Virus record (IMG/VR): IMGVR_UViG_3300021057_000002
Span: 1 to 58,767 of that record
Length of the DNA: 58,767 nt
DNA from: a virus
Direction: 5' to 3' (one strand)
Shown here: positions 9,182 through 53,232 of the stretch, piece by piece
Layout: every line of letters begins with the position of its first letter
Position numbering within the stretch: position 1 is the stretch's first letter
Program-made: the position numbers and the translations under genes
The notes under the pieces: model-generated
Seen by the model: only the letters and a program-made list of their open reading frames with translations
Databases searched by the model: none
What the model was told of the DNA's origin: nothing

Positions 9182-9708
9182 TGGGACGAGAACTGCGACG
9201 AGTGCCGCCCAACTGGGATCATCCAAAGAGCGAGCGCGGAGAGTATCGGCCGCTGTATGACCAGACGTTCGCGGAAGCATTCTTGGAGTGGCTTGATGAT
9301 TTCGACCGCGTGCGATGCGGCGAGATGACCGACTTCGAGCGAGAGTGCTACCCGAGTTTTGGCGAGTGGTGCGCCGACCACCATCCGCCGGATCCGAAGT
9401 ACTACGTTCCGTACACCAGCGAGCAAGCAACCTGGTTCCAGATCTTCGAGACCGTATCCGAAGGTACGCCAGTAACGCCGCCGTTCGCGACCAAGGCTGA
9501 ACTCGTCGAGTATCTCGTGCGGCATGGAGACTTCTGGCAACAGAAGAGATGGAACGAAGGCAACCACTTCATGCAGCCAAATCCACCTGGCTACTCACGC
9601 GAATCCGCCGAAGCGTTTGTCGAACAGGGCTGGGCGCCATCGATGGTCATCAGTAACGGCAAGCTCGCCATGGGGATCGATGTTCCGCTCGCGCTGAAGT
9701 CAGAGTAG
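9181..9708 (+). CDS. Hypothetical protein (lower-GC insert between xis and int)
   Basis: ORF track 175 aa; TAATG overlap. My hand count of the first 120 nt gives 69 G+C (about 58 percent), visibly below the flanking genes. Confidence 0.65.
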   Translation: MGRELRRVPPNWDHPKSERGEYRPLYDQTFAEAFLEWLDDFDRVRCGEMTDFERECYPSFGEWCADHHPPDPKYYVPYTSEQATWFQIFETVSEGTPVTPPFATKAELVEYLVRHGDFWQQKRWNEGNHFMQPNPPGYSRESAEAFVEQGWAPSMVISNGKLAMGIDVPLALKSE

Positions 9709-9719
9709 CGTCCACCGCC

Positions 9720-11159
9720 ATGCCCTCCGTCTTCTGGAAGAACAGTCAATTCTACGCTCGCCTCAAAGGCGAGAAAGTTCCGGGCAAGTGGGGCAACGCG
9801 CCTACGGGCGAGACCGACCGCGCCAAGGCGGAGAGGTTCGCCGAGCTCGCACAGCAGGCGATCGACAAGCGCAACAAAGTCCGCGCGGCTGGCGCGCTGT
9901 CGCTGCGCGAATTCGTCCGCCAGTGGCTCGTGAAGCGCCAGGAGGCCGGACATGACTGGAAGAAAGATCGCGGGCGGCTCTCCAAGCACGTCCTACCCGT
10001 GCTCGGCGATCTACTGCTCGTGGACGTCACCACGGCGCACGTCGCTGACCTGGTGCACGATCTGCGGTTCAAGCACGACCTGGCCGCGCGCACCGTCCGC
10101 AACGTCTACAGCGTGCTCGCGGCCGTTCTGCGCGATGCTGCGATGGCGGGCAGGATCCCGTCGTCTCCCTGCATGCTCACCGAGGCGCAGCTCGGCCCAA
10201 AGCTCGACAAGGACCCCGAGTGGCGTGACGGCGCGTTGTTCACGCGCGAGGAAGCGCAGTCTCTGATCTCAGACGAGCGGATCCCGTTCGACCGGCGGAT
10301 CGTCTACGCGCTCGGCTTGCTCGCTGGTCTGCGTCCGGGCGAGGGAGCCGCTCTCAGGTGGCGTAACTACGACGCCACGTGCGAGCCGCTCGGCAAGCTG
10401 ACCGTGGCTTTGTCCTACTCCACCAGCAGATCGAAAACCAAGCGCACGAAGACCGAGGCCGTCCGCTACGTGCCGGTGCACCCGACGCTCGCGGCGATGC
10501 TGGCCGAGTGGCGGCTGTTTGGTTGGGCGCAGATGATGGGTCGCATGCCCGAAGCCGACGATCTGATTGTGCCGCTACCGCCGAACGTGAAGCGCACGAA
10601 GCGGACCGGCGAGCGGTTCCGCGGCTGGGACTACACCGGCCGGCGCTGGCGCGAGGTCGACTTGCCGGTGCTCGGTTGGCGTCATCGATCGGTCTACGAC
10701 ACGAAGGCCACGTTTATCACCCTCGTGCTGGAGGACGGCGCCGACCCGGCCATCATCCGCGAGCGCGTGACCCATACGAAGCCGCGCCGGGACGCGTTCG
10801 ACGGCTACGATCGCGGCATTCACTGGGCCGCCACATGTCGCGAGGTTGCCCGGTTGCGGTTGGAGCGGCTTGCACCCGCCGTGCACCCGGCAGATCAATC
10901 GTCGTCGGAAAACGTTGGCTCCGGAGGAGGGTTTCGAACCTACAATCCAGCTACTTACAGCTCGCCCGTGTTTCGCGTCTTCGACGGTGGAAGGCAGGAT
11001 CTGCGTACCGCATGTGACCACTCGCTAGCGTTGATGGGTGCAAGCGCTTGCACCCGGTCTCAGCAGGACGCCAGCGGGCCGATCGTCGACAGTTCCGCCA
11101 CCGCCGTCCCGATCGGCTGCCGGCCTACAAGCACAGCCAGGGCGAGAACGAACAGGTAG
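9720..11159 (+). CDS. int: Tyrosine recombinase (phage integrase) whose ORF extends through the putative attP
   Basis: ORF track 479 aa. It has an N-terminal SAM-like domain. Catalytic-type residues are GLRPGEG (Arg), WRHRSVYDTKAT (His/Arg), VTHTK (His) and DGYDR (Tyr-363, about nt 10806). Roughly 115 further codons follow the catalytic Tyr. Confidence 0.9.
   Translation: MPSVFWKNSQFYARLKGEKVPGKWGNAPTGETDRAKAERFAELAQQAIDKRNKVRAAGALSLREFVRQWLVKRQEAGHDWKKDRGRLSKHVLPVLGDLLLVDVTTAHVADLVHDLRFKHDLAARTVRNVYSVLAAVLRDAAMAGRIPSSPCMLTEAQLGPKLDKDPEWRDGALFTREEAQSLISDERIPFDRRIVYALGLLAGLRPGEGAALRWRNYDATCEPLGKLTVALSYSTSRSKTKRTKTEAVRYVPVHPTLAAMLAEWRLFGWAQMMGRMPEADDLIVPLPPNVKRTKRTGERFRGWDYTGRRWREVDLPVLGWRHRSVYDTKATFITLVLEDGADPAIIRERVTHTKPRRDAFDGYDRGIHWAATCREVARLRLERLAPAVHPADQSSSENVGSGGGFRTYNPATYSSPVFRVFDGGRQDLRTACDHSLALMGASACTRSQQDASGPIVDSSATAVPIGCRPTSTARARTNR
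10916..10940 (-). other. Putative attP core: 3-prime-terminal tRNA fragment (T-loop to CCA)
   Basis: The reverse complement reads GGTTCGAAACCCTCCTCCGGAGCCA. That parses as G53-TTCGAAA-C61, T-stem 3-prime strand CCCTC, acceptor strand CTCCGGA, discriminator G, and CCA. No matching 5-prime acceptor strand or anticodon stem lies upstream, so this is a fragment, not a gene. Confidence 0.55.
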
Positions 11160-11214
11160 GCGCGGTCTTGTGGGGACATGCGCGGGACATCGGCCAGGAG
11201 CGGCAGGAGTTGCT

Positions 11215-11394
11215 ATGAAACGACGATCCATGAGCGATAGAGGAAGGCTGACGTACACGCGATGGGCGACCTTAGAGCGACGCCACGGGCGAGACGCACA
11301 CGCCCTGGTCGCCTGGGGACACCCGGCAGATTTGCGCTGGGAGTCACGCCGAGCGCATCGCAGGCGCGCGATGTCAGAGAGGGCGCACGGATGA
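11215..11394 (+). CDS. Hypothetical small basic protein
   Basis: Tail of ORF 11038..11394 from ATG 11215 (AGGAG upstream). Its stop overlaps the next ATG as ATGA. Confidence 0.3.
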   Translation: MKRRSMSDRGRLTYTRWATLERRHGRDAHALVAWGHPADLRWESRRAHRRRAMSERAHG

Positions 11395-11639
11395 CAACCT
11401 ACTGGTACGTCTACCGCGCGGAGATGTCCGCCGACCGACGCGAGTTGCTGAGATCGCCCAGCCGGTGGCTGCTGCACGACCGCGAGGAGATCCGCCTCGC
11501 CCATTCGCTCACCGTGATCGGAGAGGACGCTTGCGCAAGCTTCGGTGCGTTTAACACGGAAGCCGAGGCGAAAGAACGGGCCGCACTCGCCGAGGAGCTG
11601 TACGGCAAGCGCTGCTACATCGTGCCGAGGGACGTCTAG
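11391..11639 (+). CDS. Hypothetical small protein
   Basis: Tail of ORF 11262..11639 from ATG 11391. Confidence 0.4.
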   Translation: MTTYWYVYRAEMSADRRELLRSPSRWLLHDREEIRLAHSLTVIGEDACASFGAFNTEAEAKERAALAEELYGKRCYIVPRDV

Positions 11640-11648
11640 TCCGCTGTA

Positions 11649-11667
11649 TCCGCGGGCCTACCGCGGA
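11649..11667. terminator. Hairpin between convergent genes (possible bidirectional terminator)
   Basis: TCCGCGG-gccta-CCGCGGA forms a 7-bp stem. It lies between the stop at 11637-11639 (+) and the stop at 11658-11660 (-). No clear U-tract. Confidence 0.35.
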
Positions 11668-11861
11668 ATTCGAATCTGCGGAGTCGCTTCGTCGGAGAAC
11701 TCGTAGTTCTTGAGGCACTTGGCGCACGTGACGGTACTCCACGCAACCTCGGGCGGGCCGACTTGCGAGAGGAGCCGGTCGCCGGTGAGCGAGACCTGCT
11801 GGGGGTGGTTGCAGCGTGGACAGCGGAGGGTGATTTTGCTGATTTTGCGGTAGGTGGACAC
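11658..11861 (-). CDS. Zinc-ribbon protein
   Basis: ORF track 67 aa with CPRC...CAKC. Separated by 44 nt from the upstream gene. Confidence 0.55.
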   Translation of the reverse strand: MSTYRKISKITLRCPRCNHPQQVSLTGDRLLSQVGPPEVAWSTVTCAKCLKNYEFSDEATPQIRIPR

Positions 11862-11905
11862 GCCGCGATATTGTCAGACGAGCCGCATCGACCGGACGGA
11901 TTAGG

Positions 11906-12166
11906 CTACTCGCCCACGCACTGAGCCACGGCCCGGGCCCATTCGCGGAGTCCAGCTAGCTCGCGCATGACGTCGGCCAGATCGGACTTGGTGACAACCA
12001 GCGTCAGATTGTTGGGCGCGAAGTACGGGAACCCGACGACGTAGGACGGCTCGGGCAACGCGGGCAGCGAGCACTTCATCGGTTCGACGGTGGTGGAGAT
12101 GTTTCGGATGACCGGCGCTGGCGGCTTCGCGCACCCAACGAGCACCACTATGACGAGCAGCCTCAT
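11906..12166 (-). CDS. Lipoprotein
   Basis: ORF 11906..12340 trimmed to ATG 12166 (4-nt overlap). MRLLVIVVLVGC is a signal peptide plus lipobox. Confidence 0.6.
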   Translation of the reverse strand: MRLLVIVVLVGCAKPPAPVIRNISTTVEPMKCSLPALPEPSYVVGFPYFAPNNLTLVVTKSDLADVMRELAGLREWARAVAQCVGE

Positions 12167-12498
12167 CGCGCACACCCGGCGATCGCTACGTCGAGTTTCC
12201 AGCGCAGATCGGCCGCGTAGCGCTCGAACAGCCGAGCAGTGCACAGGTACAGGTCGCCGAGCGCGACGTAGCCGAAGCATAAGACGTCGATGTCCGGCCG
12301 CGTCGGCAGCGTGCCGACGAAGTCGCGCAGGTTCGCGCACGTTGGTCGCGGTTTGCGGGCTTGAGATCGCGGTGGATGATCCGGATCCGCGTAGCCGGTC
12401 CAGCAGCCGACGCTGATGGCAAATAGCGTTGCCAGTGCGACCCGTCGCACGGAAAGAATACTTGCCAACATGAGTTTAGGCGGACGACTAAATTTCAT
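12163..12498 (-). CDS. Lipoprotein
   Basis: ORF 12163..12612 trimmed to ATG 12498 (4-nt overlap). A hydrophobic leader ends in the lipobox ISVGC. Confidence 0.55.
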   Translation of the reverse strand: MKFSRPPKLMLASILSVRRVALATLFAISVGCWTGYADPDHPPRSQARKPRPTCANLRDFVGTLPTRPDIDVLCFGYVALGDLYLCTARLFERYAADLRWKLDVAIAGCAR

Positions 12499-12776
12499 GC
12501 ACGACCTCGCTTCTTGCCAACGCCGCGCGACGCCTCGAGGAGCGCCGTTGACGCCATCGTGACGATCGATCGGCCCGTCGCGCACAGGGCCCGGGTCCGA
12601 CAGGTGGAACATTCGGTCTTGTGCGCTTCGAGATCGATCACCTCGGGTACCGGCGGCTGGACGACGAGCGACTCGGCGAGTTGCTTCAGGAGCCCCTGTG
12701 CCGTGCGGCAGATCTGCGACGGACCGCAGACCTTGCAGATATCTCGGTGAAGCTCGAGCTTCTGCACGATCGTCAT
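12495..12776 (-). CDS. Cys-rich small protein
   Basis: ORF 12495..12809 trimmed to ATG 12776 (ATGA overlap). Contains CKVCGPSQIC and CSTCRTRALC. Confidence 0.45.
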   Translation of the reverse strand: MTIVQKLELHRDICKVCGPSQICRTAQGLLKQLAESLVVQPPVPEVIDLEAHKTECSTCRTRALCATGRSIVTMASTALLEASRGVGKKRGRA

Positions 12777-12958
12777 CGCTGCGACCTCCGGGCGATCGCC
12801 TTGAGGCACGTCATGCAGTCGGGAACGTCGGCGGCGATCACGGCGCCATCGGCAGGACGACGGCAGAGCGTTGCCCGGGGTGATTCCGAGTCCTCCGTGA
12901 TCGCGTGGCGCTTGTGGCCTGACCGCAGGCGTACCGTGATTGTCCGAATCGAGATCAT
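12773..12958 (-). CDS. Hypothetical small protein
   Basis: Last 61 codons of ORF 12773..13318 from ATG 12958 (ATGA overlap with the phosphoesterase stop). Contains CMTC. Confidence 0.4.
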   Translation of the reverse strand: MISIRTITVRLRSGHKRHAITEDSESPRATLCRRPADGAVIAADVPDCMTCLKAIARRSQR

Positions 12959-14313
12959 GAAGTTCTCGATTCGCGAACTTTGGCTTCCTGCAACGCGCGG
13001 AGTTGGCGAATGCCGATGATCCGGCGGTTGATCCTCCCCCACTCGCGGTGGAATGTGTCGACGCACATCGTTTGCTGGGAGCGGTAGCCCTTGCCGTGGT
13101 GCCAGCGGTCCTTCGGTGCCAAGGTTGGGAAGGTCTCGACAGTGCAGCCGGGAAGCTCTTTGACCGACGAGTGATGAACGTGGCCGCACAGGATGTGGCG
13201 ATGCTCGGTCTCGCCCCAGTCCTTGGCGCGATCGCAGGCCATGACGCCCATCAGCCGCTCGGCTTTCGCTTCGTCGCCGTGCGTGGTCATGATCAGAACC
13301 TTGCCGAACCGAACCCACTTGAATGGATCGGGTGAGGTGTTGACGGTGACGCGAGGCTCGCGCTCGTAGAACTGCTCGATCGCGTGGGCCATCGCGGTCG
13401 AGGTGTGCCAGTCGTGGTTCCCGGGAACGACGATGTCCTCGACGAGCTCGTGCTTTTCCAGTGCCCGATCGGTGAGTCGCCGCATCGCGCGGATGCCGCT
13501 ACGAAACACCTTGCTCCAACGAGTGTCACCGTCTTGCCGCGTGCCTGCCGTCGTGGTGACGTTGCTGTTGTCGAAGTGAAAGAAGTCGCCGAGCGACAGG
13601 ATCACGGCTCGACGGGCCGGCTCGGCGACGCGGACGAGCTCGTCTACAGCATCGACAAGATCGCGCTCGGCGATCTCAAGGTCGAAGTTATCGCCCGTCT
13701 CCTCATGCCACGCGTGCATCCCCAGGTGCGGATCGCCCATAACGTAGACGGCGAGGAGGTCGTCGTCGGACACTTCGCGGCGCTTGACCGGCTCGGCGAA
13801 ACCACGAAACGGCTCCGTGATCGAAGGCAACGCCGCGAGCAGGCCTTCGAGCCGCTGCTGTTGCGAGACGTTGGTCTTGACCCACTTCAGTCGGACGTTG
13901 CCGTCCTCGTCGTAGAGCGTGGATTCGCCCTTGATGTAGTGGCCGGCCGGAACACTTGGATCGTGCTGCACGACTGCACTTGGTTCGTGTTCGATACCCG
14001 CATTGGGGATGTCGATACCCAGCCTGGGGATATTCGGCAGCGTCGGTTCTTCGCCGTCGAAGTCGTTGCCAAGTTGACCGGATTCTGTTGTCGCGAGGAT
14101 TCCATCAACCTTTTGTTGACCAAATCCCACCCCGTCCCAACGCCCACGCAACTCATCCCAGCCCGGGTAGTTGTAGCGCTGGGCGTTCTTGGTGTACGCC
14201 TCCCACGACGTGCCGAGCCGTTGCGCGAAGTCGTGGCGATCTGTGCTCTCGCGCGCGAGCCGGTGAAGCTCGCCCGACTCCAACAACACACGGAGTCGGT
14301 CTCTGACGGTCAC
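12955..14313 (-). CDS. Calcineurin-like metallophosphoesterase with an N-terminal extension of about 200 aa
   Basis: ORF 12955..14799 trimmed to GTG 14313 (GGAGG upstream, GTGA overlap). Motifs in canonical order: GDPHLG, GDFFHFD, GNHD, TTHGD, CGHVHH. Confidence 0.8.
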   Translation of the reverse strand: MTVRDRLRVLLESGELHRLARESTDRHDFAQRLGTSWEAYTKNAQRYNYPGWDELRGRWDGVGFGQQKVDGILATTESGQLGNDFDGEEPTLPNIPRLGIDIPNAGIEHEPSAVVQHDPSVPAGHYIKGESTLYDEDGNVRLKWVKTNVSQQQRLEGLLAALPSITEPFRGFAEPVKRREVSDDDLLAVYVMGDPHLGMHAWHEETGDNFDLEIAERDLVDAVDELVRVAEPARRAVILSLGDFFHFDNSNVTTTAGTRQDGDTRWSKVFRSGIRAMRRLTDRALEKHELVEDIVVPGNHDWHTSTAMAHAIEQFYEREPRVTVNTSPDPFKWVRFGKVLIMTTHGDEAKAERLMGVMACDRAKDWGETEHRHILCGHVHHSSVKELPGCTVETFPTLAPKDRWHHGKGYRSQQTMCVDTFHREWGRINRRIIGIRQLRALQEAKVRESRTS

Positions 14314-14486
14314 CGCTTGGCCACCTCCGCAGCGTGTGTGATCGCGTCGACGAACTTGGTAGCGTCGCCGATCGATCGAACTACAGCGACGACCACGACC
14401 TCGCCCGGTTGCACGGTCAGGGGTCCGTCGATGCCCAGCGCCGGCAGAACCCGCGCGGATCGCTCCTCCCAGATGCGGAACCTCAC
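14310..14486 (-). CDS. Hypothetical 58-aa protein
   Basis: Not in the ORF track (under 60 aa). I translated it by hand as VRFRIWEERSARVLPALGIDGPLTVQPGEVVVVAVVRSIGDATKFVDAITHAAEVAKR. It has GTGA overlaps at both ends. Confidence 0.35.
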   Translation of the reverse strand: MRFRIWEERSARVLPALGIDGPLTVQPGEVVVVAVVRSIGDATKFVDAITHAAEVAKR

Positions 14487-15364
14487 GGGTTACTCCACGC
14501 GAGCGCGGCAAACGTCTTGGGGCCGACGATCCGATCGGGCTTGAGCCCGTGGCAGCGCTGGAAGTCTTCGACGCAGATCGCCGTGACCTCGTCGAACAGG
14601 CCCGGCGTGCCCTCGCATTGGCCGAGACGGCGCTGGATCCACCGAACCTGGTCGCCCTTGGCTGGCTCGGAGATCGAGTGAAATCGATTGACGTCGACGG
14701 TCGAGGTGAAGCCCGGGAACCCGACCGCGTCACCCTGATACTGGTAGATCCAGTAGTTCGTCGCATCGCCCAGCGGCGGTGGAACGTTGGGGCGAACACC
14801 GACGGGCGGCATCATGCGAGCCTTGGTGCGGATCGGCCACGGCCACGGCTTGGCGAGCCACAGCGGGCTTTCGGTGAATATGGGGGCCGGAAGATCGTCG
14901 AGATCTTCTTTCCACACCCGCGCGCTCGTGTAGATACCCGGCGCGATCCCATAGTGGGCTTTGAGGACCTTCCACGCACGGTGCGTCCAATCGAGCGCCT
15001 CCTGCGCCGAGAACCCGGTGATCTGTCGGCCGCCCGGAAACTCGACATCGAGCATCGGCGGGAAGTCGCGATACCGCTCGAGCGGGACGTTTTTGCAGAA
15101 CACCTCGGCCTGTTGCTCGGGCGAAGGTGGTGGTGACCAGCCGATCTTCGGGTAGCAGAGAAACAGATAGGCCCCGTAGGTCATCCCTGCTTTGCGGATC
15201 GCGTCGCGATACTGGAGCGTTGGATCGACGTAGATCGATCCACCCTTTTGCAAGGGCCTGCCGTAGACACCGCGCACGATCACAAACGATGTCCCGACGT
15301 CCGTGGCCACGGACCAACTCGGCGGGCGGTTGCCGTCGATTGAGGCAAAGTCGATTCCGAGCAC
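14483..15364 (-). CDS. Endolysin: GH25-type muramidase plus C-terminal peptidoglycan-binding domain
   Basis: ORF 14483..15733 trimmed to GTG 15364 (TAGTG junction). LGIDFASIDGN opens the GH25-like domain. The C-terminus GDQVRWIQRRLG...GLKPDRIVGPKTFAAL fits the PG_binding_1 pattern. Confidence 0.85.
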   Translation of the reverse strand: MLGIDFASIDGNRPPSWSVATDVGTSFVIVRGVYGRPLQKGGSIYVDPTLQYRDAIRKAGMTYGAYLFLCYPKIGWSPPPSPEQQAEVFCKNVPLERYRDFPPMLDVEFPGGRQITGFSAQEALDWTHRAWKVLKAHYGIAPGIYTSARVWKEDLDDLPAPIFTESPLWLAKPWPWPIRTKARMMPPVGVRPNVPPPLGDATNYWIYQYQGDAVGFPGFTSTVDVNRFHSISEPAKGDQVRWIQRRLGQCEGTPGLFDEVTAICVEDFQRCHGLKPDRIVGPKTFAALAWSNP

Positions 15365-15765
15365 TAGATCGTTCCCGCCTCGGTCTTGAACTGGGCATCT
15401 CTCCACAGCACCTTGCGGAGAAACGCGAAGCCCTCTGACGCTTCGACCGGCGAGAACACGACGCCGCCGAACGGCTGTTTGCCCGCGAGCACTCCGGCGA
15501 CCAGATCGGCCACGACACAGGCGCCGGTGCGGATCCCGAAGTGCTTGAGCGATGCGCGGACCTGCGACCAGTCGATCTGTCCGTCCTGCCCGCGGGCCGC
15601 TTCGATCACTTCTGCCACCGTCGGCGAGAACTCGTCGATCAACTGCGCGGCCTGTGCCGTGGTGCAGTCCACCAGCGCCACACGCGCGTCCTTGGCCGCG
15701 TCCTTGAGGGCCCCACAGCCCACAACGCCGCACAGCACGAGCATCAGTCCCGTCTTCCCAGTCAT
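15364..15765 (-). CDS. Lipoprotein (lysis-cassette member)
   Basis: ORF 15364..16032 trimmed to ATG 15765. MTGKTGLMLVLCGVVGC is a signal peptide plus lipobox. Confidence 0.6.
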   Translation of the reverse strand: MTGKTGLMLVLCGVVGCGALKDAAKDARVALVDCTTAQAAQLIDEFSPTVAEVIEAARGQDGQIDWSQVRASLKHFGIRTGACVVADLVAGVLAGKQPFGGVVFSPVEASEGFAFLRKVLWRDAQFKTEAGTI

Positions 15766-16465: not shown

Positions 16466-16539
16466 TCGTCCTTGCTGGGCCCCAAAAGCTTCACGAGGAG
16501 GTACGTGATGACGAATGTCCCGATGACGAGTGAGATCAC
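16462..16539 (-). CDS. 25-aa single-pass membrane peptide
   Basis: Last 25 codons of ORF 16462..17103, reading VISLVIGTFVITYLLVKLLGPSKDE. GTGA overlap upstream and ATGA overlap downstream. Confidence 0.35.
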   Translation of the reverse strand: MISLVIGTFVITYLLVKLLGPSKDE

Positions 16540-17003
16540 CGCTGGCTCGCTCCCTCGGGCGGCGTTGACGTATGAACCACGCGTGCCTTGGGCAGAACGG
16601 CCGCTGCGAACTTCTGTCCGCTCGCGACCTCGCCGGGTGCCCTCGGGTTGAACAGCATCGCGACCGTTGTCATGACCGCCGTCATCGTTAGGCCAAGTGT
16701 GGGCGTGGCTCCGCGACTCGCGGCCTCGGCCAAGATCGCGGCGCCGCCCAATAGGGCCGCGACGTAAACGCCGCGCTGTCCCTGTGCGAACCACGCGACC
16801 TTTTTGGCCAGTACGGAGAGCACCAGAAACGCGACGATGATCCCCGCCTGAAGCAACTGACCACCGCGCCACAGCCGCTCGACCAGACCGATCGACTCGA
16901 CTGGCTTGGTAAGCGGATCGGGAATGTCGGCGAACGCCGATCCCACCATCAACACCATGAGCACGAGGCCCGTTGCGATCACAGCGAACACCAGACGACG
17001 CAT
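16536..17003 (-). CDS. Multi-pass membrane protein (holin candidate)
   Basis: ORF track 155 aa with about four hydrophobic segments. It sits upstream of the peptidase and endolysin. Confidence 0.55.
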   Translation of the reverse strand: MRRLVFAVIATGLVLMVLMVGSAFADIPDPLTKPVESIGLVERLWRGGQLLQAGIIVAFLVLSVLAKKVAWFAQGQRGVYVAALLGGAAILAEAASRGATPTLGLTMTAVMTTVAMLFNPRAPGEVASGQKFAAAVLPKARVVHTSTPPEGASQR

Positions 17004-17012
17004 GACAGCCTC

Positions 17013-17780
17013 CTACTTGGCGAGCGACTCGACGACCGAGCCGCAGTGCGACGCGAGAAACGAGATCAGGGCGACCAGCGCCAGAATTCCGGCACGCCCC
17101 CACGACAAGAGCTTTGCTTGGCGTCGATCGCCCGCGTCCTGATCGGCGTTGCGACGCTCCAGTGCGGTGATTCGAACGTCGAGCGCGTTGTTGATTGCCT
17201 CAACCGACGTGACTCGAGCGGCGATCCCGCCGACGGATTGGTTCATTCGATCGGACGAATGCTCCAGGCGAGTGATCCGATCGGCGAGATCGTCGAGCCG
17301 CTTGTCGAGCTTTTCGATCCCCGCCATGATCCGCGGCCAGTCGTGATCCCAGAACTGGCCCGTGCGACCCCGATCGCGCTCGACCGTTGACGTCACGGTC
17401 TCGACCCGGGCCATCAGCGACTTGATCGCTGGCATCACGAACTCGCGCAGCTGGGCCGAACTCTCGATAATGTCGCGCCGATAGCCAGCAACCTCGGCCT
17501 CGAGCTTTTCGATCTGCGGTCCGACGTCGCGAACACCCCACACCCGCTCGATCGCCGCGGTGGTTTCACTCACCGAGTCGCGCAGCATCGCGAGCTGTGC
17601 TTTGATCGGCGGCGGGATCGAGTCGTAGCCCTCGATCGTCTCGGGCTTTGGCGGCTCTTGCGGTGGTGGAGTAGCCTCGGGATCGATGTGCACCGGAACG
17701 CGACGCTCGCGGCCGACGAGGGCACGATCGTCGTCGCCCATGACCGAGCGCGCGCGGCGAGTTCGACGCTCGTCGGTCAT
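17013..17780 (-). CDS. Coiled-coil protein with a C-terminal TM anchor
   Basis: ORF 17013..17876 trimmed to ATG 17780 (ATGA overlap). Long heptad-like helices end in the hydrophobic tail GILALVALISFLASHCGSVV. Confidence 0.6.
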   Translation of the reverse strand: MTDERRTRRARSVMGDDDRALVGRERRVPVHIDPEATPPPQEPPKPETIEGYDSIPPPIKAQLAMLRDSVSETTAAIERVWGVRDVGPQIEKLEAEVAGYRRDIIESSAQLREFVMPAIKSLMARVETVTSTVERDRGRTGQFWDHDWPRIMAGIEKLDKRLDDLADRITRLEHSSDRMNQSVGGIAARVTSVEAINNALDVRITALERRNADQDAGDRRQAKLLSWGRAGILALVALISFLASHCGSVVESLAK

Positions 17781-32451: not shown

Positions 32452-32637
32452 GAAAATGCTCCTAAGGGGTGGTGGTCAGTCGGCCGTCATGGCCTCGTCC
32501 GGCTGCCTGGTCTCGCGCCGTGGTTGCGGTGTCTCGAATCGAACGGAAGTGCCGTCGGGCATGAGCCGCGGCCGAGTACCAACTCTCACCGCACAAACCG
32601 CCCGCACGACGTTGCCGTGTCGAGCAGTGGAGTCACG

Positions 32638-47710: not shown

Positions 47711-48220
47711 TCATCCCCATCCCATCCTCCGCTTGGGCCCGAGGTCATTAACCGGGTACTCCCTTGCTGGCGGACCGTCGCAATCCCCTTGGTGGGAATC
47801 CTCGCGAGTACACCAGCGGCCGGATGCGAAGCGACGCAGGCATGCCTTCGGAGGGCGGGTGTCGCGATCGGCGCCGAGATCGCGGCCTTCGGGGCAAAAC
47901 GCCTGACGCAACAACTCGCGCTGCTCTGCGCGTTGTTCCTCCGTGAAACCCTCTCGGCCCATGCACGGCTTGCACTCGCCGCCCGGACAATCAGGTCGAC
48001 ACGTGCACGGCGTCAGTTCGCCGCCGCACGCGTAACAGCGGTGCGCCCATTCGGCCTCATCCTTGGCGAGGACCTCAGCCCAGTACGCGTCGCCCTCGAC
48101 TACGAGCGCTTGCTCTGCGATCGCGCAGGGCGTGGTGCCAGTTTGCTCGGCACGCTCGGTGAGCTTGTCGTGTAGTTCCTCGGAGATCTCGATCTCGACA
48201 GTGTCTAGGAAGTCGTTCAT
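47711..48220 (-). CDS. Cys-rich protein with an RHH-like N-terminus
   Basis: ORF track 169 aa with many Cys (CYACGGELTPCTCRPDCPGGECKPC). Confidence 0.55.
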   Translation of the reverse strand: MNDFLDTVEIEISEELHDKLTERAEQTGTTPCAIAEQALVVEGDAYWAEVLAKDEAEWAHRCYACGGELTPCTCRPDCPGGECKPCMGREGFTEEQRAEQRELLRQAFCPEGRDLGADRDTRPPKACLRRFASGRWCTREDSHQGDCDGPPAREYPVNDLGPKRRMGWG

Positions 48221-49029
48221 CGCGTGCCTCCGAATAGGGATGGCTGGTGGGTTTTGGGTTTGGCCTCGTCGCCACAGAGCCGGCGGGTAGCGATCGCGTG
48301 GTACTCGGCGTTGAGTTCAAAGCCGAGGAAGCGGCGGCCGAGCATGCGGCAGGCGACCCCTGTGGTGCCCGAGCCGGCGAAGGGATCGAGAACGAGATCG
48401 TCGGGTTCGCTGAAGTCGGCGACCAGTTCCTGCATCAGCGAAAGTGGCTTTTGCGTCGTGTGCAGCCGTTCGTTCTCGCCTCCACGGTTGAGCACGATCG
48501 GATGCGCGTAGTAGCCGTGCTTGCCGCCGCCATTCCAACGCTTGCGGCCGGGACGATGCGCGACAACGATTGCTTCGACGGCCTGTGCTGGTCGATCCCC
48601 GGTGAACTGAGGTGTCGCGCCGATCTTGTGCCAAACACAGGTTCGTATGTATTGGAGCCCGGCGCGTTCGAGGTGACCTCGCCATCCACTGCCGTCGGGA
48701 TCTCCGATCATTTCGACGGTGCAAAAGATCACTGTCCAGCGCCGAGCGACACGCGCGCACTGATTGGCGACCTCTGCCATTTGCTGTTGCGAGATGGGAG
48801 CAAAGCCGAGTTCGCGAACGCGATTGAATTCAGCACGCTGTGATACACGCGGATTGGCGGCTCGCTTGCGCTCGTCGTATCCCGTGGCGCCGCGACGCCC
48901 TGCGTTGTGCGTGTGCTCGTCGTACGGCGGATCAGTGATGACGACGTCAACACTGTCTTCGTCGAGCGCGCGCAGTCCCTCGATGCAGTCCCCGAGGTTC
49001 AGTTGCCAGTCACCGTTCGCGAGGATCAC
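48217..49029 (-). CDS. DNA methyltransferase, beta class (N6-adenine or N4-cytosine); no partner endonuclease seen
   Basis: ORF 48217..49878 trimmed to GTG 49029 (GTGA overlap). VVITDPPYD (motif IV) precedes TTQKP and the C-terminal LVLDPFAGSGTTGVA (motif I). Confidence 0.85.
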   Translation of the reverse strand: MILANGDWQLNLGDCIEGLRALDEDSVDVVITDPPYDEHTHNAGRRGATGYDERKRAANPRVSQRAEFNRVRELGFAPISQQQMAEVANQCARVARRWTVIFCTVEMIGDPDGSGWRGHLERAGLQYIRTCVWHKIGATPQFTGDRPAQAVEAIVVAHRPGRKRWNGGGKHGYYAHPIVLNRGGENERLHTTQKPLSLMQELVADFSEPDDLVLDPFAGSGTTGVACRMLGRRFLGFELNAEYHAIATRRLCGDEAKPKTHQPSLFGGTR

Positions 49030-49844
49030 GCCGCCCTCCGAATGGGCAGCACTTCGCCGTTGCGCAGCCGATCCGACAGCGCCCGGCCTTCGGCGGTCAG
49101 CCTGAACTCCTGTATCTCGCCCGACGACACTCCGCGAAACACACCGCGCACCGTGCGGACGTCTACCTGACCCGCCTTGCGCAGTCGCCGCATGATGTGG
49201 GCAACGTGGTTTCTGTCCAGCTCGTCGAGCTCGAGGATGTCGCCGATCTCGCGTGTTGCGATCCAGTCGTGCCACCGCATCACGAGCAGGATCTTGACCC
49301 GCAGCCGATCTTCCGACTCGTCGAGCGGCCGATACGCGTGGAGTTGTTTGGTCGTCGGCGGCTTCTCTACGTTCGGCGGCGTCAGTTCGCCCGTGCGCAT
49401 CTTGGGCGGGACTTCCAGGCCGCCATTCGCGGCGATCTTGCGCTTTGACCAGTTCTTCTTGCGCCAGTTGTTCTTTGTGTTGATCCGCGCAGCTTCGCGA
49501 TGAAGCGCGCAGTAAACGTTGTCTTCGAGCGACGGGTTTTTGCACAACTGGCAGAGGCCCGCGATCTTGTGCGCCAGCCGCCGGGCCCGTTGTTTCGCGT
49601 TCTCCTCGGCAGCGTGTGTTGCACGGCGCTTGCGATGCCACTCGCGAGCCCGGGCGTTCACGCGTTTCTGATTGCGCACACGGTAGCGGTAGCTCGCGAG
49701 CAGGATCTTGTCGTAGCACTCGACACAGCGGACTCCGTCGTCCTCTTGGAGACCGGCCGCGCAGTCGATACAGAGTCGGTTCGCCTTGCGCTGTGCGCGC
49801 CGTTCTCGCGCTTGCTGTTTGTTTTTCTCGGGGTCGCGCGGCAT
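49026..49844 (-). CDS. DNA-binding protein: duplicated zinc-ribbon/basic modules plus a C-terminal winged helix
   Basis: ORF 49026..49910 trimmed to ATG 49844 (TAATG junction). CIDC...CVEC plus a basic stretch repeats as CQLC...C. The C-terminus IATREIGDILELDELDRNHVAHIMRRLRKAGQVDV is MarR-like. Confidence 0.6.
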   Translation of the reverse strand: MPRDPEKNKQQARERRAQRKANRLCIDCAAGLQEDDGVRCVECYDKILLASYRYRVRNQKRVNARAREWHRKRRATHAAEENAKQRARRLAHKIAGLCQLCKNPSLEDNVYCALHREAARINTKNNWRKKNWSKRKIAANGGLEVPPKMRTGELTPPNVEKPPTTKQLHAYRPLDESEDRLRVKILLVMRWHDWIATREIGDILELDELDRNHVAHIMRRLRKAGQVDVRTVRGVFRGVSSGEIQEFRLTAEGRALSDRLRNGEVLPIRRAA

Positions 49845-49981
49845 TACCGCTTCCCTTTCTGGAGCAACGAACGGACACGCTTGCCGATCACGACCGCACA
49901 CGGGATACACACGTCCTCATCAGTTCGATACGTCGTCGCCTGACACGCCACGCACCAGGCGCTCTTGGGTTGTGTCTGCAT
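49844..49981 (-). CDS. 45-aa zinc-ribbon protein
   Basis: Last 45 codons of ORF 49844..50557. GAGAGGAG upstream. Contains CVAC...CIPC. Confidence 0.5.
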   Translation of the reverse strand: MQTQPKSAWCVACQATTYRTDEDVCIPCAVVIGKRVRSLLQKGKR

Positions 49982-50342: not shown

Positions 50343-51689
50343 CTACTCCATGCGTGTGGTTGGACCCCAGAAGTCAGCTCGCACTGCTCCGGTCCGCCCG
50401 TTGGAATTCTTGAGGACGAGCAACTGCACCATTCGTGCAAACTCGCTGTTGCTGGGGCGCGGCTCGTTCTCCTCGTAGTCGACGCCCTTTTGCGGGTTGT
50501 TCGGCGAGTAGTAGTGGCCGCGGTAGATCCCCACGACGCACTTGGACCGCTCCTCAAGGGACCCGGACTCGCGCAGATCGGCCAGCATGGGCCGCTTGTC
50601 GCCGCGCTTCTCCACGTCGCGATTGAGTTGGCTCATCACGACGTAGGCCACGTCATCGGCTTTGGCGGCGTCGGCCAGGGTCGTGATGATTCCGGTGAGA
50701 TCGTCGTGCCGGTTCTGCCGGCGCTCGCTGCGCGACGGTTTGACCAACTGCACGTAGTCGACGATCGCAACCTTCGTGTTGTTGCTCCGGCGATGCTTGC
50801 GAACCGAGCGCACGATCTCGTCGGCGGTGATTCCCGACCGTCCGTCGACCAACCAGCGCCGCCCTTGGATCTTGGGCAGCACGTTGGCGACGTCGCGCAT
50901 CTGCACGTTGCTTAGGCTGACGTTGCGCAGCGACTCGGCCGGGACTTGCGAGATCCGGCTCATCACGCGATCGCTGTAGGCCTCCTCGGTGTCCTCGAGC
51001 GAGAACAGGTGAACGCCGAATCCCGCCTCGGTGCAGGCATCAGCCGTGGCGAGACCGAGGCTCGACTTGCCCATCGCCGGACGGGCACAGACGATGCTGA
51101 CGATCTTCGGCTGCCACCCGCCGAGCAGTTGATCCAACCGAGCGATCCCGGTCGGGTAACCGGTCATCGTTCGCTCGCCGTTCGCTCGCTCGTGCGCGAT
51201 CTGCTCGAGCTGTTTCATTCGGCGCTTGACGGCTTCCGAGACCGTGGGTGTTTGCTCCGGGGTCCCGACGTCGAGACGGGTGATCGCAGCAAGGGCCATC
51301 GAGAGCAGTTCCTCGCCGCTGGTCGCGGGCGCATTGGCCACCCGTTCGAGCTCGATGCGAACCATCCGCGCGATCGCGGCGTCGCGAACCTGCTCGGCGT
51401 ACTCGACCGCGCACGATGCGTCGGGAACTGTCCGCAGGCACTCGCCGAGATACTCCTCGGCGCGATCGCGAGCCCCTTCCCCGCGGCGCTGCATCTCGGC
51501 CAGCACCGTCACGAAGTCGACCGGGCTCCCCGCGGCTTCGACGTTGCGGATCGCCTGCCACGCGTGAACGGCTGGCGGGTGCGCGAAATGATCGGCCGCG
51601 AGGAAGTCTAGTTCTGCGAGTGACTCTGCGTTGAGCAGAACGGCGCCGATGACGGCAGACTCCAGCGCCGTTGGGATCTCGACCTTCAC
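50343..51689 (-). CDS. dnaB: Replicative DNA helicase (DnaB family)
   Basis: ORF track 448 aa. It has a DnaB N-terminal domain, GYPTGIARLDQLLGG, Walker A CARPAMGKSSLGL, Walker B AIVDYVQL, and SQLNRDVEKR. Confidence 0.9.
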   Translation of the reverse strand: MKVEIPTALESAVIGAVLLNAESLAELDFLAADHFAHPPAVHAWQAIRNVEAAGSPVDFVTVLAEMQRRGEGARDRAEEYLGECLRTVPDASCAVEYAEQVRDAAIARMVRIELERVANAPATSGEELLSMALAAITRLDVGTPEQTPTVSEAVKRRMKQLEQIAHERANGERTMTGYPTGIARLDQLLGGWQPKIVSIVCARPAMGKSSLGLATADACTEAGFGVHLFSLEDTEEAYSDRVMSRISQVPAESLRNVSLSNVQMRDVANVLPKIQGRRWLVDGRSGITADEIVRSVRKHRRSNNTKVAIVDYVQLVKPSRSERRQNRHDDLTGIITTLADAAKADDVAYVVMSQLNRDVEKRGDKRPMLADLRESGSLEERSKCVVGIYRGHYYSPNNPQKGVDYEENEPRPSNSEFARMVQLLVLKNSNGRTGAVRADFWGPTTRME

Positions 51690-52558
51690 GGCAGACCTCC
51701 GTCGAGCCGCTCGATGTGGCGGATTTGCGTGGACTGCTGGGCTCCGCGGCGCGACCGGTGATCGTCAATCGCCTTGCGTAGCCAGTTGCGCCAACGCGAG
51801 TTCCAGTCTTTTGCGGTCTTCCCCCCGGCCTTTTCCCAGTCGCGCATCCGGTCGAGCTCGCGAGCTGGACTAATCCCGACGTCGATGGCTTCCTGCTCGA
51901 TGGCGCGGTTCACCTCCGAGCGCTCGGGCTTCCAATCGTCCGGGAGCCTCTGCGCTCGTGCTCGCTGTTTCCCGACGTCTCCAGCGTACCTGTCGCACTT
52001 TTCTCGAAGTTCCGCCGAATGTTTCGGGTCAGCTTTCGGCAAATCTCCCCCCGAAAGGGGGGATAAAGGGGGGATCTCTGATCTCTTCTCTTCTGATCTA
52101 ATCTGATCTAATGCGTCACGGTCCGTCACCGTGACGTTTGGTGACGTTTGTGACGTCACGCTGTCGTCACTCGTTATCGGAGTGACGTCCTGTGACGTTG
52201 GTTTTGGCGATAGACCTTCTCGCCACTTACGAGTCCGCTCGGCGCCGGTTGCAGGTCGCTTGCCCCATTCGTCCTCCCAGCCAATGATTCGCCATCCACG
52301 GCCTTCGCGAGCTATTAGCTGCGCGGATTCGGCCCTTGCGATGCCGTCGGCTGCTTCGGCCTCGGTCATCATGAGCTGGTCGGCAATGAACCACGGGTCA
52401 AGGATCCCTTCAGGCAAGTAGCCCGGGACGGGATTGGTAGGATCTGCATTGCGCCGTAACGCGAACAAAAACACTTCGCGAGCGTTCCGCCCTCCTTTGC
52501 GGATCTTTGGGTGGCTGTCGAGATTCGACGCCACTTTGCACCAGTGGCCCTGTGTCAC
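51686..52558 (-). CDS. Replication initiator / replisome organiser carrying the origin iterons
   Basis: ORF track 290 aa. It lies upstream of and overlaps dnaB. The iteron cluster sits in its central linker. The C-terminus LPDDWKP...DWNSRWRNWLRKA is a motif I recall from phage replication proteins. Confidence 0.65.
   Translation of the reverse strand: MTQGHWCKVASNLDSHPKIRKGGRNAREVFLFALRRNADPTNPVPGYLPEGILDPWFIADQLMMTEAEAADGIARAESAQLIAREGRGWRIIGWEDEWGKRPATGAERTRKWREGLSPKPTSQDVTPITSDDSVTSQTSPNVTVTDRDALDQIRSEEKRSEIPPLSPLSGGDLPKADPKHSAELREKCDRYAGDVGKQRARAQRLPDDWKPERSEVNRAIEQEAIDVGISPARELDRMRDWEKAGGKTAKDWNSRWRNWLRKAIDDHRSRRGAQQSTQIRHIERLDGGLP
52046..52198. other. Putative origin of replication (iterons inside the initiator gene)
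   Basis: Hairpin TCCCCCC-GAAA-GGGGGGA at 52046-52063 and a second GGGGGGA at 52068-52074. TCTGATCT occurs three times (52077, 52092, 52102). Nine GTGACG/CGTCAC hexamers lie in 52114-52197, many 10 bp apart. There is a local GC dip. Confidence 0.65.
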
Positions 52559-53232
52559 CGATTGGCCTCTCGAGCGCGCACAAGAACGCCGGCGACATCA
52601 GGCCGTCGGTAGTTGGGGCCCTTCTGAACTTTTCCATCCGCCCGCCGCCCACCTCCAGACTTGGTCATATTCGAGCGATGCACTTCGTCGAACACCTCGG
52701 CCAGCGGGATCCCCCACGTGATCGCCGCGCCGATGATGACGTAGGTCAGATCCGCGAGCGCATCGGCCACGCCAACCGCGGAGCCAGCGGACAGCGCCTC
52801 GCGCAACTCGTCGAGCTCTTCCTCGATCAGCGCGACCCGAAGTTGTGGCTCGCGACTGATGTCCAGCGTCGACGAGTCGACGATCCCCATCGCCGCGTGG
52901 AACGCGCGTACCTGGGCGATCGCACCAGCGAGCGGCAACTCGCCTTGAAGGCGCGCCACCTCGGCTCGTAGCCGACGAATATCGTAGAGCAGGTACCAGG
53001 TTTGATCCTGGCTCTCCTGCAGCGCCTCTACGATGAAGTCGCGCGGGTCGGTCGCGAGATCGAGTCGGCCGTGTTTTTGATGCCCGCCCTCGGCCTTGGT
53101 GACGAGTTCGAGCAAGGAATCGCGGACGTCGGGTCCGAGCGCGTAGAGGCGCCTGGCGAGATCTTGCTCGCGATCGGGCTCGCTGGCCGGTTCGGATGCA
53201 CGTTTCGTGTGCACGTCGTTTTGTCTCGACAT
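52555..53232 (-). CDS. MazG-like nucleoside triphosphate pyrophosphohydrolase
   Basis: ORF track 225 aa. The C-terminal half LIEEELDELREA...VADALADLTYVIIGAAITWGIPL...VHRSNMTK...DGKVQKGPNYRRPD matches the phage MazG-like signature from memory. Confidence 0.7.
   Translation of the reverse strand: MSRQNDVHTKRASEPASEPDREQDLARRLYALGPDVRDSLLELVTKAEGGHQKHGRLDLATDPRDFIVEALQESQDQTWYLLYDIRRLRAEVARLQGELPLAGAIAQVRAFHAAMGIVDSSTLDISREPQLRVALIEEELDELREALSAGSAVGVADALADLTYVIIGAAITWGIPLAEVFDEVHRSNMTKSGGGRRADGKVQKGPNYRRPDVAGVLVRAREANR

Follow-up and report, generated by a model that had tools for sequence, protein, structure and literature searches.

Calcineurin-like metallophosphoesterases are encoded by many phages, and such effectors also exist in bacterial defence. 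The gene of the PHROG 704 family, the name of which ('DNA repair exonuclease') is an automated annotation, was reported to be persistent in virulent Drexlerviridae (PMC13164509). The phosphoesterase gp48 of mycobacteriophage A10ZJ24 was described as an early-expressed enzyme with phosphodiesterase activity that disrupts host genomic DNA (PMC12287305). The Metis defence system employs a calcineurin-like NADase effector with a PUA-like N-terminal sensor and an adjacent HAD phosphatase gene. Here, a block of seven genes containing a phosphoesterase of this superfamily was analyzed, located at positions 11658-14486 on the (-) strand of the IMG/VR virus record IMGVR_UViG_3300021057_000002. The window was the whole 58.8-kb ENA metagenome contig k141_697991 (58,767 nt, ~64% GC), which looked like a complete temperate phage.

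It was concluded that the block was, on balance, the distal end of the long (-) strand gene array of the phage and that it was a composite rather than one system. Its core would be formed by the translationally coupled genes of a 58-aa protein (g58), the phosphoesterase and a 61-aa protein (g61). A helix-turn-helix (HTH)-like domain would tether the phosphoesterase to DNA, and its Mre11/DP1-like core would cut DNA phosphodiester bonds late in infection, with a possible role in processing or degrading host or unpackaged DNA; g58 and g61 may modulate the enzyme. The lipoproteins lipo111 and lipo86 would be o-spanin-like outer-membrane proteins, most likely acting in the final stage of lysis in a phage without the classical i-/o-spanin pair found among its relatives. 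The 93-aa protein g93 and the terminal zinc-ribbon protein would be small cytoplasmic zinc-binding proteins recurring in the same region. The features of the block and of the adjoining endolysin gene were as follows.

14483-15364, (-) strand: endolysin, 293 aa by the depositor's call, with GH25 (1.5e-12) and PG_binding_1 (5.8e-8) matches in Pfam; given as context
14310-14486, (-) strand: g58, 58 aa, an open reading frame (ORF) with 4-nt overlaps at both ends and a GC content at third codon positions (GC3) of 0.80
12955-14313, (-) strand: phosphoesterase, 452 aa, a PHROG 704 calcineurin-like metallophosphoesterase
14143-14313, (-) strand: N-terminal domain of the phosphoesterase, aa 1-57, five-helix and HTH-like in the AlphaFold (AF2) model
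13012-13767, (-) strand: catalytic core of the phosphoesterase, aa 183-434, with five metal-binding motifs and a predicted local distance difference test score (pLDDT) mostly >90
12773-12958, (-) strand: g61, 61 aa, with a His/Cys motif (CMTC), coupled to the stop codon of the phosphoesterase
12495-12776, (-) strand: g93, 93 aa, with two HxxxCxxC(x5-6)C modules
12163-12498, (-) strand: lipo111, 111 aa, with the lipobox SVGC, a hydrophobic N-terminus and five Cys, a predicted lipoprotein or membrane-anchored periplasmic protein
11906-12166, (-) strand: lipo86, 86 aa, Pro-rich, with the lipobox LVGC, of an o-spanin-like family
11658-11861, (-) strand: zinc-ribbon ORF, 67 aa, CPRC...CAKC, preceded by a 44-nt gap, the last gene of the operon, GC3 0.82

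The gene structure was firm. All eight (-) strand ORFs, i.e., the seven of the block and the endolysin, were found at the coordinates proposed in a first-pass annotation made from the letters alone, and each of the six junctions from the endolysin down was a 4-nt start/stop overlap. The motifs GDPHLG, GDFFHFD, GNHD, HGD, GHVHH and CMTC, the two Cys clusters, the lipoboxes SVGC and LVGC and the CPRC...CAKC pair were all present. The GC3 of the proposed frames was 0.70-0.85 against ~0.64 for the genome, therefore all ORFs of the block were plausibly coding. The 61-aa and 67-aa ORFs had been left uncalled by the depositor's gene caller; the former was accepted as a gene because its homologues were conserved, and the latter was a putative gene by its GC3 and by analogy. 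The chain of overlaps was also considered as a sign of a functional unit. This was rejected, since the same junctions were present at 12 of the 18 gene boundaries of the opposite-strand early operon and were thus the norm of the genome.

The family membership of the phosphoesterase was equally firm. The protein matched the PHROG 704 profile with an E-value of 7.2e-101, over aa 19-436 and profile positions 15-387 of 390. The N-terminal ~200 aa, which had been described as unassigned, were thus a part of the family, and comprised the HTH-like domain, a linker and a beta-hairpin. The second annotated PHROG was phrog_284 ('exonuclease', 2e-18), a generic phosphoesterase PHROG reached just 1e-3, and the Pfam Metallophos match was 3.8e-6. 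The metal-binding residues D194, H196, D243, N299, H300, H345, H378 and H380 were invariant in an alignment of 120 homologues.

Relatives of the phosphoesterase were detected by tblastn in 2,109 phage records, and many of these were of virulent phages. Tunavirus, Webervirus, Dhillonvirus, Kagunavirus and Jerseyvirus were represented, as were phages of Vibrio, Campylobacter, Rhodobacter and Lactobacillus, and phage relatives were abundant in BFVD. A metagenome protein collection yielded 1,172 homologues at E <= 1e-10 among 8,000 scored candidates, with an identity of at most 57% at ~96% query coverage, and of at most 60% where the coverage was only ~71%. Identity to any isolated phage was at most 45%. 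A sequence search of the PDB returned nothing at E up to 1 except two chance-level matches to an unrelated anti-sigma factor.

The overall fold was also clear. The AF2 model, with a pLDDT of 85.6, consisted of a five-helix bundle (aa 1-57; helices 3-13, 15-22, 26-32, 37-46 and 52-56), a disordered linker (~aa 61-105), a beta-hairpin with a helix (aa 125-169) and the core (aa 183-434). The pLDDT exceeded 90 over aa 1-50 and was 86 over aa 51-60. The N-termini of the homologues gave sub-threshold matches to the Pfam families HTH_1, HTH_11, HTH_23, HTH_24, HTH_28, Sigma70_r4_2 and GerE. The best Foldseek matches in the PDB were Mre11 (1e-7) and the exonuclease DP1 of PolD (4e-7), with template modeling (TM) scores of 0.35-0.5. 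Based on its family and fold, the enzyme was probably a DNA-directed phosphodiesterase or nuclease. Since it had no signal peptide and carried an HTH-like domain, an action on the envelope was unlikely.

The neighbourhood was compared in eight metagenomic temperate-phage contigs, i.e., the window, six contigs (L017, L018, L020, L061, L062 and L063) obtained by an exact-protein look-up of the closest full-length phosphoesterase homologues, and L071, obtained independently by starting from the nearest lipo86 homologue. The six look-up contigs shared a layout of tail genes, lysis genes and then the phosphoesterase with small flanking genes. A convergent integrase followed in L017, L018, L061 and L062, and the contigs of L020 and L063 ended earlier.

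The gene of g58 was present in seven of the eight contigs, including the window, with homologues in L017, L018, L020, L062 and L063 (1.5e-11 to 7e-3 by phmmer, <1e-18 by jackhmmer) and in L071 (4e-13). It was located directly upstream of the phosphoesterase in six of them, overlapping it by 4 nt in five and by 23 nt in L063, and was separated from it by one gene in L071. The gene of g61 was recorded in four contigs: the window, L017 (8.6e-18), L062 and L061, where it was an uncalled ORF (both 4-5e-3 by phmmer and <1e-20 by jackhmmer). Its start overlapped the stop of the phosphoesterase by 4 nt in every one of the four, the proteins shared the pattern R.R.G..H...C...CxxC, and a similar gene was noticed by eye in L063. 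Four contigs contained g93, two of them in a half-size form (L061, 5e-11; half-size in L020, 6e-20 by jackhmmer, and in L071, 6e-13), and lipoproteins of the lipo111/lipo86 type were present in six of the eight.

Hence, the co-occurrence suggested for checking in the first-pass annotation was observed, as homologues of g58, g61, g93 and lipo111/lipo86 adjoin the same phosphoesterase in related phage contigs. The neighbourhood was real but shuffled, and g58 alone was near-constant. The order in L071, on one strand, was the upstream lipoprotein, g58, phosphoesterase, amidase, half-size g93 and the lipo86 homologue. The endolysin gene preceded the phosphoesterase gene in the window and L017, and followed it in L020, L062 and L071. 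Other small families (a 56-aa protein, an 89-aa protein and a short MazG-like protein) substituted in some relatives. Because the small genes varied in both membership and arrangement and the endolysin moved in and out, the block was regarded as a mosaic operon end and not one fixed system. When viral, genome and metagenome contigs were scanned by pattern with the phosphoesterase, the relatives returned were at most 47% identical, apart from a single partial match (56% over 81 aa), and none of them carried any of the small genes of the block.

In a rival explanation, all seven genes would together make up a single dedicated accessory system for defence, anti-defence or lysogenic conversion, with the phosphoesterase as its effector, degrading, e.g., cyclic-nucleotide or NAD+ signals. 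The co-occurrence of the block genes in related phages is compatible with such a system, calcineurin-like effectors are known from bacterial defence (e.g., MisA of Metis, which cleaves NAD+), and cyclic-nucleotide phosphodiesterase folds were among the structural matches. In addition, the mycobacteriophage phosphoesterase was reported to counter host defence via the disruption of host genomic DNA (PMC12287305). However, every relative had its own complement and arrangement of small genes apart from the near-constant g58, none of the seven proteins matched a PADLOC-DB v2 family at E <= 0.1, and neither a PUA domain nor a HAD partner was present. The GC content of the block equalled that of the rest of the genome, with no compositional sign of a mobile insert, and the family is persistent in virulent Drexlerviridae (PMC13164509) and widespread in other phages. 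One dedicated system was considered highly improbable, and the proposals of an undescribed multi-gene accessory system and of prophage-end cargo for defence or conversion were both abandoned. A Metis-like (PUA-Cal-HAD) NADase was tried as a separate candidate and rejected, since the N-terminus was a helical HTH-like bundle and no HAD domain was found among the neighbours.

The window adds a temperate-phage clade in which the PHROG 704 gene is tightly linked with small, conserved partner genes and alternates with genes of lysis. Unrelated small linked neighbours were seen elsewhere: an SH3/DUF7244 protein in T1-like phages (L064 5048-5224, Tunavirus JMPW1 gp62), a 76-aa protein in Kagunavirus (L067 3960-4190) and a Cys-rich 70-aa protein in PBR31 (L016 5044-5256). 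The layout of an enzyme with a small partner may be general although the partners are not homologous.

The window encoded a MazG/PRA-PH-like pyrophosphohydrolase at 52558-53232 (-), at the far end of its (-) strand array (5e-17 by a hidden Markov model, HMM). Short homologues of this protein were encoded upstream of the phosphoesterase, at most a few genes away, in L018 (8970-9284), L020 (9098-9472), L061 (7750-8004) and L062 (3477-3770), and a similar short gene was noticed by eye at that position in L071 (2964-3215). In four distant loci, dGTP_diPhyd_N domains adjoined the PHROG 704 enzyme.

The gene order was further examined for a link of the phosphoesterase to lysis. It was proposed as an alternative that the phosphoesterase module itself is a part of the lysis programme, acting as a late nuclease that clears host or unpackaged DNA or couples the end of packaging to the timing of lysis, which would explain the place of the gene inside or beside lysis cassettes. 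Adjacency to lysis genes was seen in several unrelated groups. In the clade of the window, the endolysin was on one side or the other of the phosphoesterase. Tunavirus JMPW1 showed the order phosphoesterase, SH3/DUF7244, holin, endolysin and spanin, and the order phosphoesterase-holin-endolysin-spanin was reported in 508 of 522 Drexlerviridae (PMC13164509). The order in Dhillonvirus was holins, lysozyme, small gene and phosphoesterase, and in Rhodobacter phage RcMcLean the holin and endolysin genes were followed by three small genes, interpreted as a transmembrane protein, an i-spanin and an o-spanin, and then by the phosphoesterase, overlapping by 4 nt. The adjacency also occurred in Vibrio phage 49E34-1 and Aeromonas phage AsC4_1.

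However, in a set of 19 more distant, non-redundant loci, the genes lying up to 3 kb away were mostly those of replication or nucleotide metabolism and terminase, and the four lysis-domain matches in these loci, against ~2 loci expected, were about chance. No adjacency was seen in Kagunavirus, Jerseyvirus and PBR31, and the authors of the Drexlerviridae study place the gene at the end of the replication module (PMC13164509). The simplest reading was that the PHROG 704 gene is preferentially located at the boundaries of modules, and the adjacency may reflect just that. A direct part of the phosphoesterase in the lysis programme was judged quite unlikely.

The lipoproteins of the composite block, in turn, resembled o-spanins by their sequences and were the sole spanin-like candidates in the window. 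Nine Pro residues were counted over the full length of each, with three Cys in lipo86 and five in lipo111. Word-indexed searches with lipo86 and g58 had returned the query alone, and were regarded as sensitivity failures because an exhaustive HMMER search of 1.84 billion representative proteins later gave 24 relatives of lipo86. The sequences available around two distant relatives were too short for a comparison of gene order. The family showed the motif lipobox-C..P.P..C.LP.LP.P..VGfP..vTKsD...L..LR.W...A..C, i.e., an architecture of the lipobox Cys, a Pro-rich stretch, C.LP.LP and a C-terminal helix ending in W......C. The sole annotated PHROGs in the family were those named 'Rz-like spanin' (phrog_812 and phrog_456), matched by four of 29 members with a best E of 1.6e-4; lipo86 itself matched phrog_19655 alone, a PHROG with no annotated function.

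The HMM of the lipo86 family, built without the sequences of the relatives, matched the lipoproteins of L018 and L062 (7e-7 and 5e-6) and, with poorer scores, +1-frame ORFs of L020 (0.009) and L018 (0.29). These two ORFs were classical overlapped o-spanins within i-spanin genes, the latter encoding an N-terminal transmembrane segment and a coiled coil. Such overlapped i-/o-spanin pairs were present in five relatives (L017, L018, L020, L062 and L063), with the o-spanins uncalled by gene callers. The top match in the window to the HMM of the relatives' lipoproteins was lipo111 (E 0.007, 999 ORFs), and its homologue was located in L020 at 9469-9813 (1.8e-4 by phmmer). In L071, the lipo86 homologue followed the amidase, and the half-size g93 alone intervened. 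A tblastn search of isolated phages with lipo111 and lipo86 gave nothing significant. Thus, of the proposed extension of the lysis/envelope module, the part concerning the lipoproteins was retained in the form of o-spanin-like proteins, whereas the envelope-acting phosphoesterase, being signal-less and HTH-like, was not.

Several observations weigh against the composite reading and the functions proposed within it. No i-spanin was detected in the window with an HMM of the relatives' i-spanins (E >1), and nothing recognisable as an i-spanin was present for an o-spanin to pair with. L018, L020 and L062 carried an extra lipo86/111-like lipoprotein in addition to a classical spanin pair, hence a protein of this type need not be a spanin, and lipo111 was linked to the lipo86 family weakly only. 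Regarding the phosphoesterase, a literature search found no biochemical, genetic or other experimental work on any PHROG 704 member. The fold similarity to Mre11 and DP1 was generic (TM 0.35-0.5), and the cyclic-nucleotide and lipid phosphodiesterases Rv0805, GpdQ and LpxH scored within ~50-fold of these two in Foldseek. With low TM scores and other phosphoesterase classes close behind, the fold supports a nuclease-like phosphodiesterase and not more. No Rad50/SbcC-type partner was adjacent in a search limited to the block, where the genes flanking the enzyme all encoded at most 111 aa. Late expression of the block was inferred from position alone.

The extra lipoproteins of L018, L020 and L062 also favour a different function, in which lipo111 and lipo86 serve superinfection exclusion or receptor masking, as do the Llp/Cor-like lipoproteins, and are expressed for the benefit of the lysogen. 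Both proteins are small and contain Cys, their genes are near the prophage end, and the window holds them as two tandem paralogue-like copies. However, the annotated profile matches were to spanins only, the lipo86 family HMM reached true o-spanins, and no other spanin candidate was present in the window. Moreover, the genes were chained into the late operon, and no promoter of their own was detected, in an uninformative scan that gave 0 promoters and terminators at chance level. An exclusion function was considered unlikely, and the o-spanin-like assignment was kept. A phage that has two o-spanin-like lipoproteins, and not the classical spanin pair seen in related phages, offers a small lead for lysis biology.

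The remaining small proteins of the block gave few matches. No match to g58 was found in Pfam, PHROG, NCBIfam or PADLOC, and three short strands with a C-terminal helix were predicted for it at low confidence by single-sequence AF2 (pLDDT 69). The PADLOC and NCBIfam searches were uninformative for all seven proteins. The HxxxCxxC motif of zinc-binding anti-sigma (ZAS) type proteins occurred twice in g93 and was kept in its homologues; the Pfam matches were sub-threshold, and no zf-HC2 match was obtained at E <= 0.1. Based on this motif, g93 is a probable zinc binder. The 67-aa ORF gave sub-threshold matches to zinc-ribbon Pfam families, and zinc ribbons of similar size were present in the same region of L018, L020, L061 and L062, with no significant similarity to the 67-aa ORF (E 0.45). 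As a separate observation, g93 or its half-size form directly preceded a lipoprotein gene in the window (12495-12776, lipoproteins 11906-12498), in L061 (9558-10111) and in L071 (5834-6267), and this pairing of a signal-less putative zinc-binding protein with an exported lipoprotein was conserved.

The wider layout of the window was recorded as well. The long (-) strand array contained, in order, replication genes (MazG-like 52558-53232, DnaB 50343-51689 and DNA methylase 48217-49878), structural genes, lysis genes and the block. The array was convergent with the (+) strand early operon, which ended with an integrase-like gene. The genes on both sides of the block, apart from the endolysin, were as follows.

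17013-17780, (-) strand: XhlA-like coiled-coil protein with a C-terminal transmembrane segment (XhlA 2e-4, sub-threshold), opening the lysis region
16536-17003, (-) strand: holin-like protein with four transmembrane segments by hydropathy, conserved in L017 and L061
15803-16465, (-) strand: transmembrane-anchored Zn peptidase (Pfam Zn_peptidase PF04228, 2e-40)
15364-15765, (-) strand: upstream lipoprotein with the lipobox VVGC, conserved in L071 (2e-14)
11391-11639, (+) strand: 82-aa ORF called by the depositor, GC3 0.84, with no family match, between the integrase and the block
9720-11159, (+) strand: integrase-like ORF, 479 aa, similar by tblastn to the Phage_integrase gene of L017 (5e-7); given as context

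XhlA-type proteins are better known from the lysis modules of Gram-positive phages. The XhlA-like protein of the window gave weak XhlA/'hemolysin' matches, and similar proteins stood in the corresponding place in every relative that was examined. The position equivalent to the spanin pair of the relatives was occupied in the window by the Zn peptidase and the upstream lipoprotein, and the presence of a YpfJ-type peptidase in a lysis cassette is unusual.

On the other side of the block, the 82-aa ORF was convergent with the zinc-ribbon ORF at a distance of 18 nt and had no detectable relatives. If attP adjoins the integrase, the outermost position in the prophage arm belongs to this ORF rather than to the block. 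A search of 11000-12000, which takes in the stretch between the integrase and the block, gave no match to a tRNA or to Rfam, and the adjacency to attP proposed in the first-pass annotation was not supported. In addition, blastn of the block region against phages gave a single trivial 77-nt match. A tRNA-Met gene was located at 32521-32593 (-), inside the array between the tail and head regions.

A more ambitious proposal joins two functions, namely g58-phosphoesterase-g61 as a late DNA-tethered nuclease module tied to lysis and lipo111/lipo86 as an i-spanin-independent disruptor of the outer membrane. Both together were regarded as very unlikely. If true, the nuclease module would remove host or unpackaged DNA, or would permit lysis when packaging is complete, which would explain the presence of PHROG 704 in or beside the lysis cassettes of Drexlerviridae, Dhillonvirus, a Casjensviridae phage and the clade of the window, and lipo111/lipo86 would replace the classical Rz/Rz1 pair. 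PHROG 704 members are encoded by >2,000 sequenced phages, some of which are candidates for therapy against Klebsiella, E. coli and Salmonella, and the domain model of an HTH-like domain, linker, hairpin and phosphoesterase core points to concrete assays.

The composite block was finally compared with known systems. The closest proteins were other PHROG 704 members, e.g., Tunavirus JMPW1 gp61, Dhillonvirus JLBYU60 gp62 and Rhodobacter phage RcMcLean gp50, with which the enzyme of the window shared the full-length profile match. Common to these members were an HTH-like N-terminus, the hairpin PxGxxVKGxSTL..G....W.KT and five metal motifs; a small gene was often coupled directly up- or downstream, and the phosphoesterase was often beside the holin, endolysin and spanin. 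The enzyme of the window differed by a longer disordered linker, by the clade-specific partners g58 and g61, and by its temperate phage. Mre11/SbcD and PolD DP1 shared the binuclear phosphoesterase core with a GNHD-type motif III and were the best structural matches. However, their identity was ~10-13% at TM scores of 0.35-0.5, no sequence-level relative was present in the PDB, and these families are without the N-terminal HTH-like domain.

PPP phosphatases carry the motifs GDxHG, GDxVDRG and GNHE. The phosphoesterase of the window, with GDPHLG, GDFFHFD and GNHD and with exonuclease families as its best PHROGs, was not of the NinI type, a grouping named in the first-pass annotation as part of what would refute its proposal. 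A lambda NinI-type Ser/Thr phosphatase was rejected based on these other motifs and on the lack of a PDB sequence match to a phosphatase. NinI belongs to the same superfamily, but the enzyme of the window is twice its size and has the HTH-like domain; the relative PBR31 orf015 carries the annotation 'protein phosphatase (phage lambda like)'. The sole functional precedent found for a phage calcineurin-like enzyme was A10ZJ24 gp48, likened by superfamily and described activity. It is an early gene, and Mycobacterium was outside the ten most-hit genera in the phage search with the enzyme of the window.

The lipoproteins shared with Rz/Rz1 spanins a small size, a Pro-rich composition, conserved Cys and a place in the lysis region, along with weak spanin profile matches. 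In contrast to Rz/Rz1, the window had no i-spanin with an N-terminal transmembrane segment and coiled coil, and it encoded two tandem lipoproteins rather than an i/o pair; the sister phages hold such a lipoprotein in addition to a classical Rz/Rz1-type pair. The parts of the block are further members of already known kinds, and no new kind of system is indicated.

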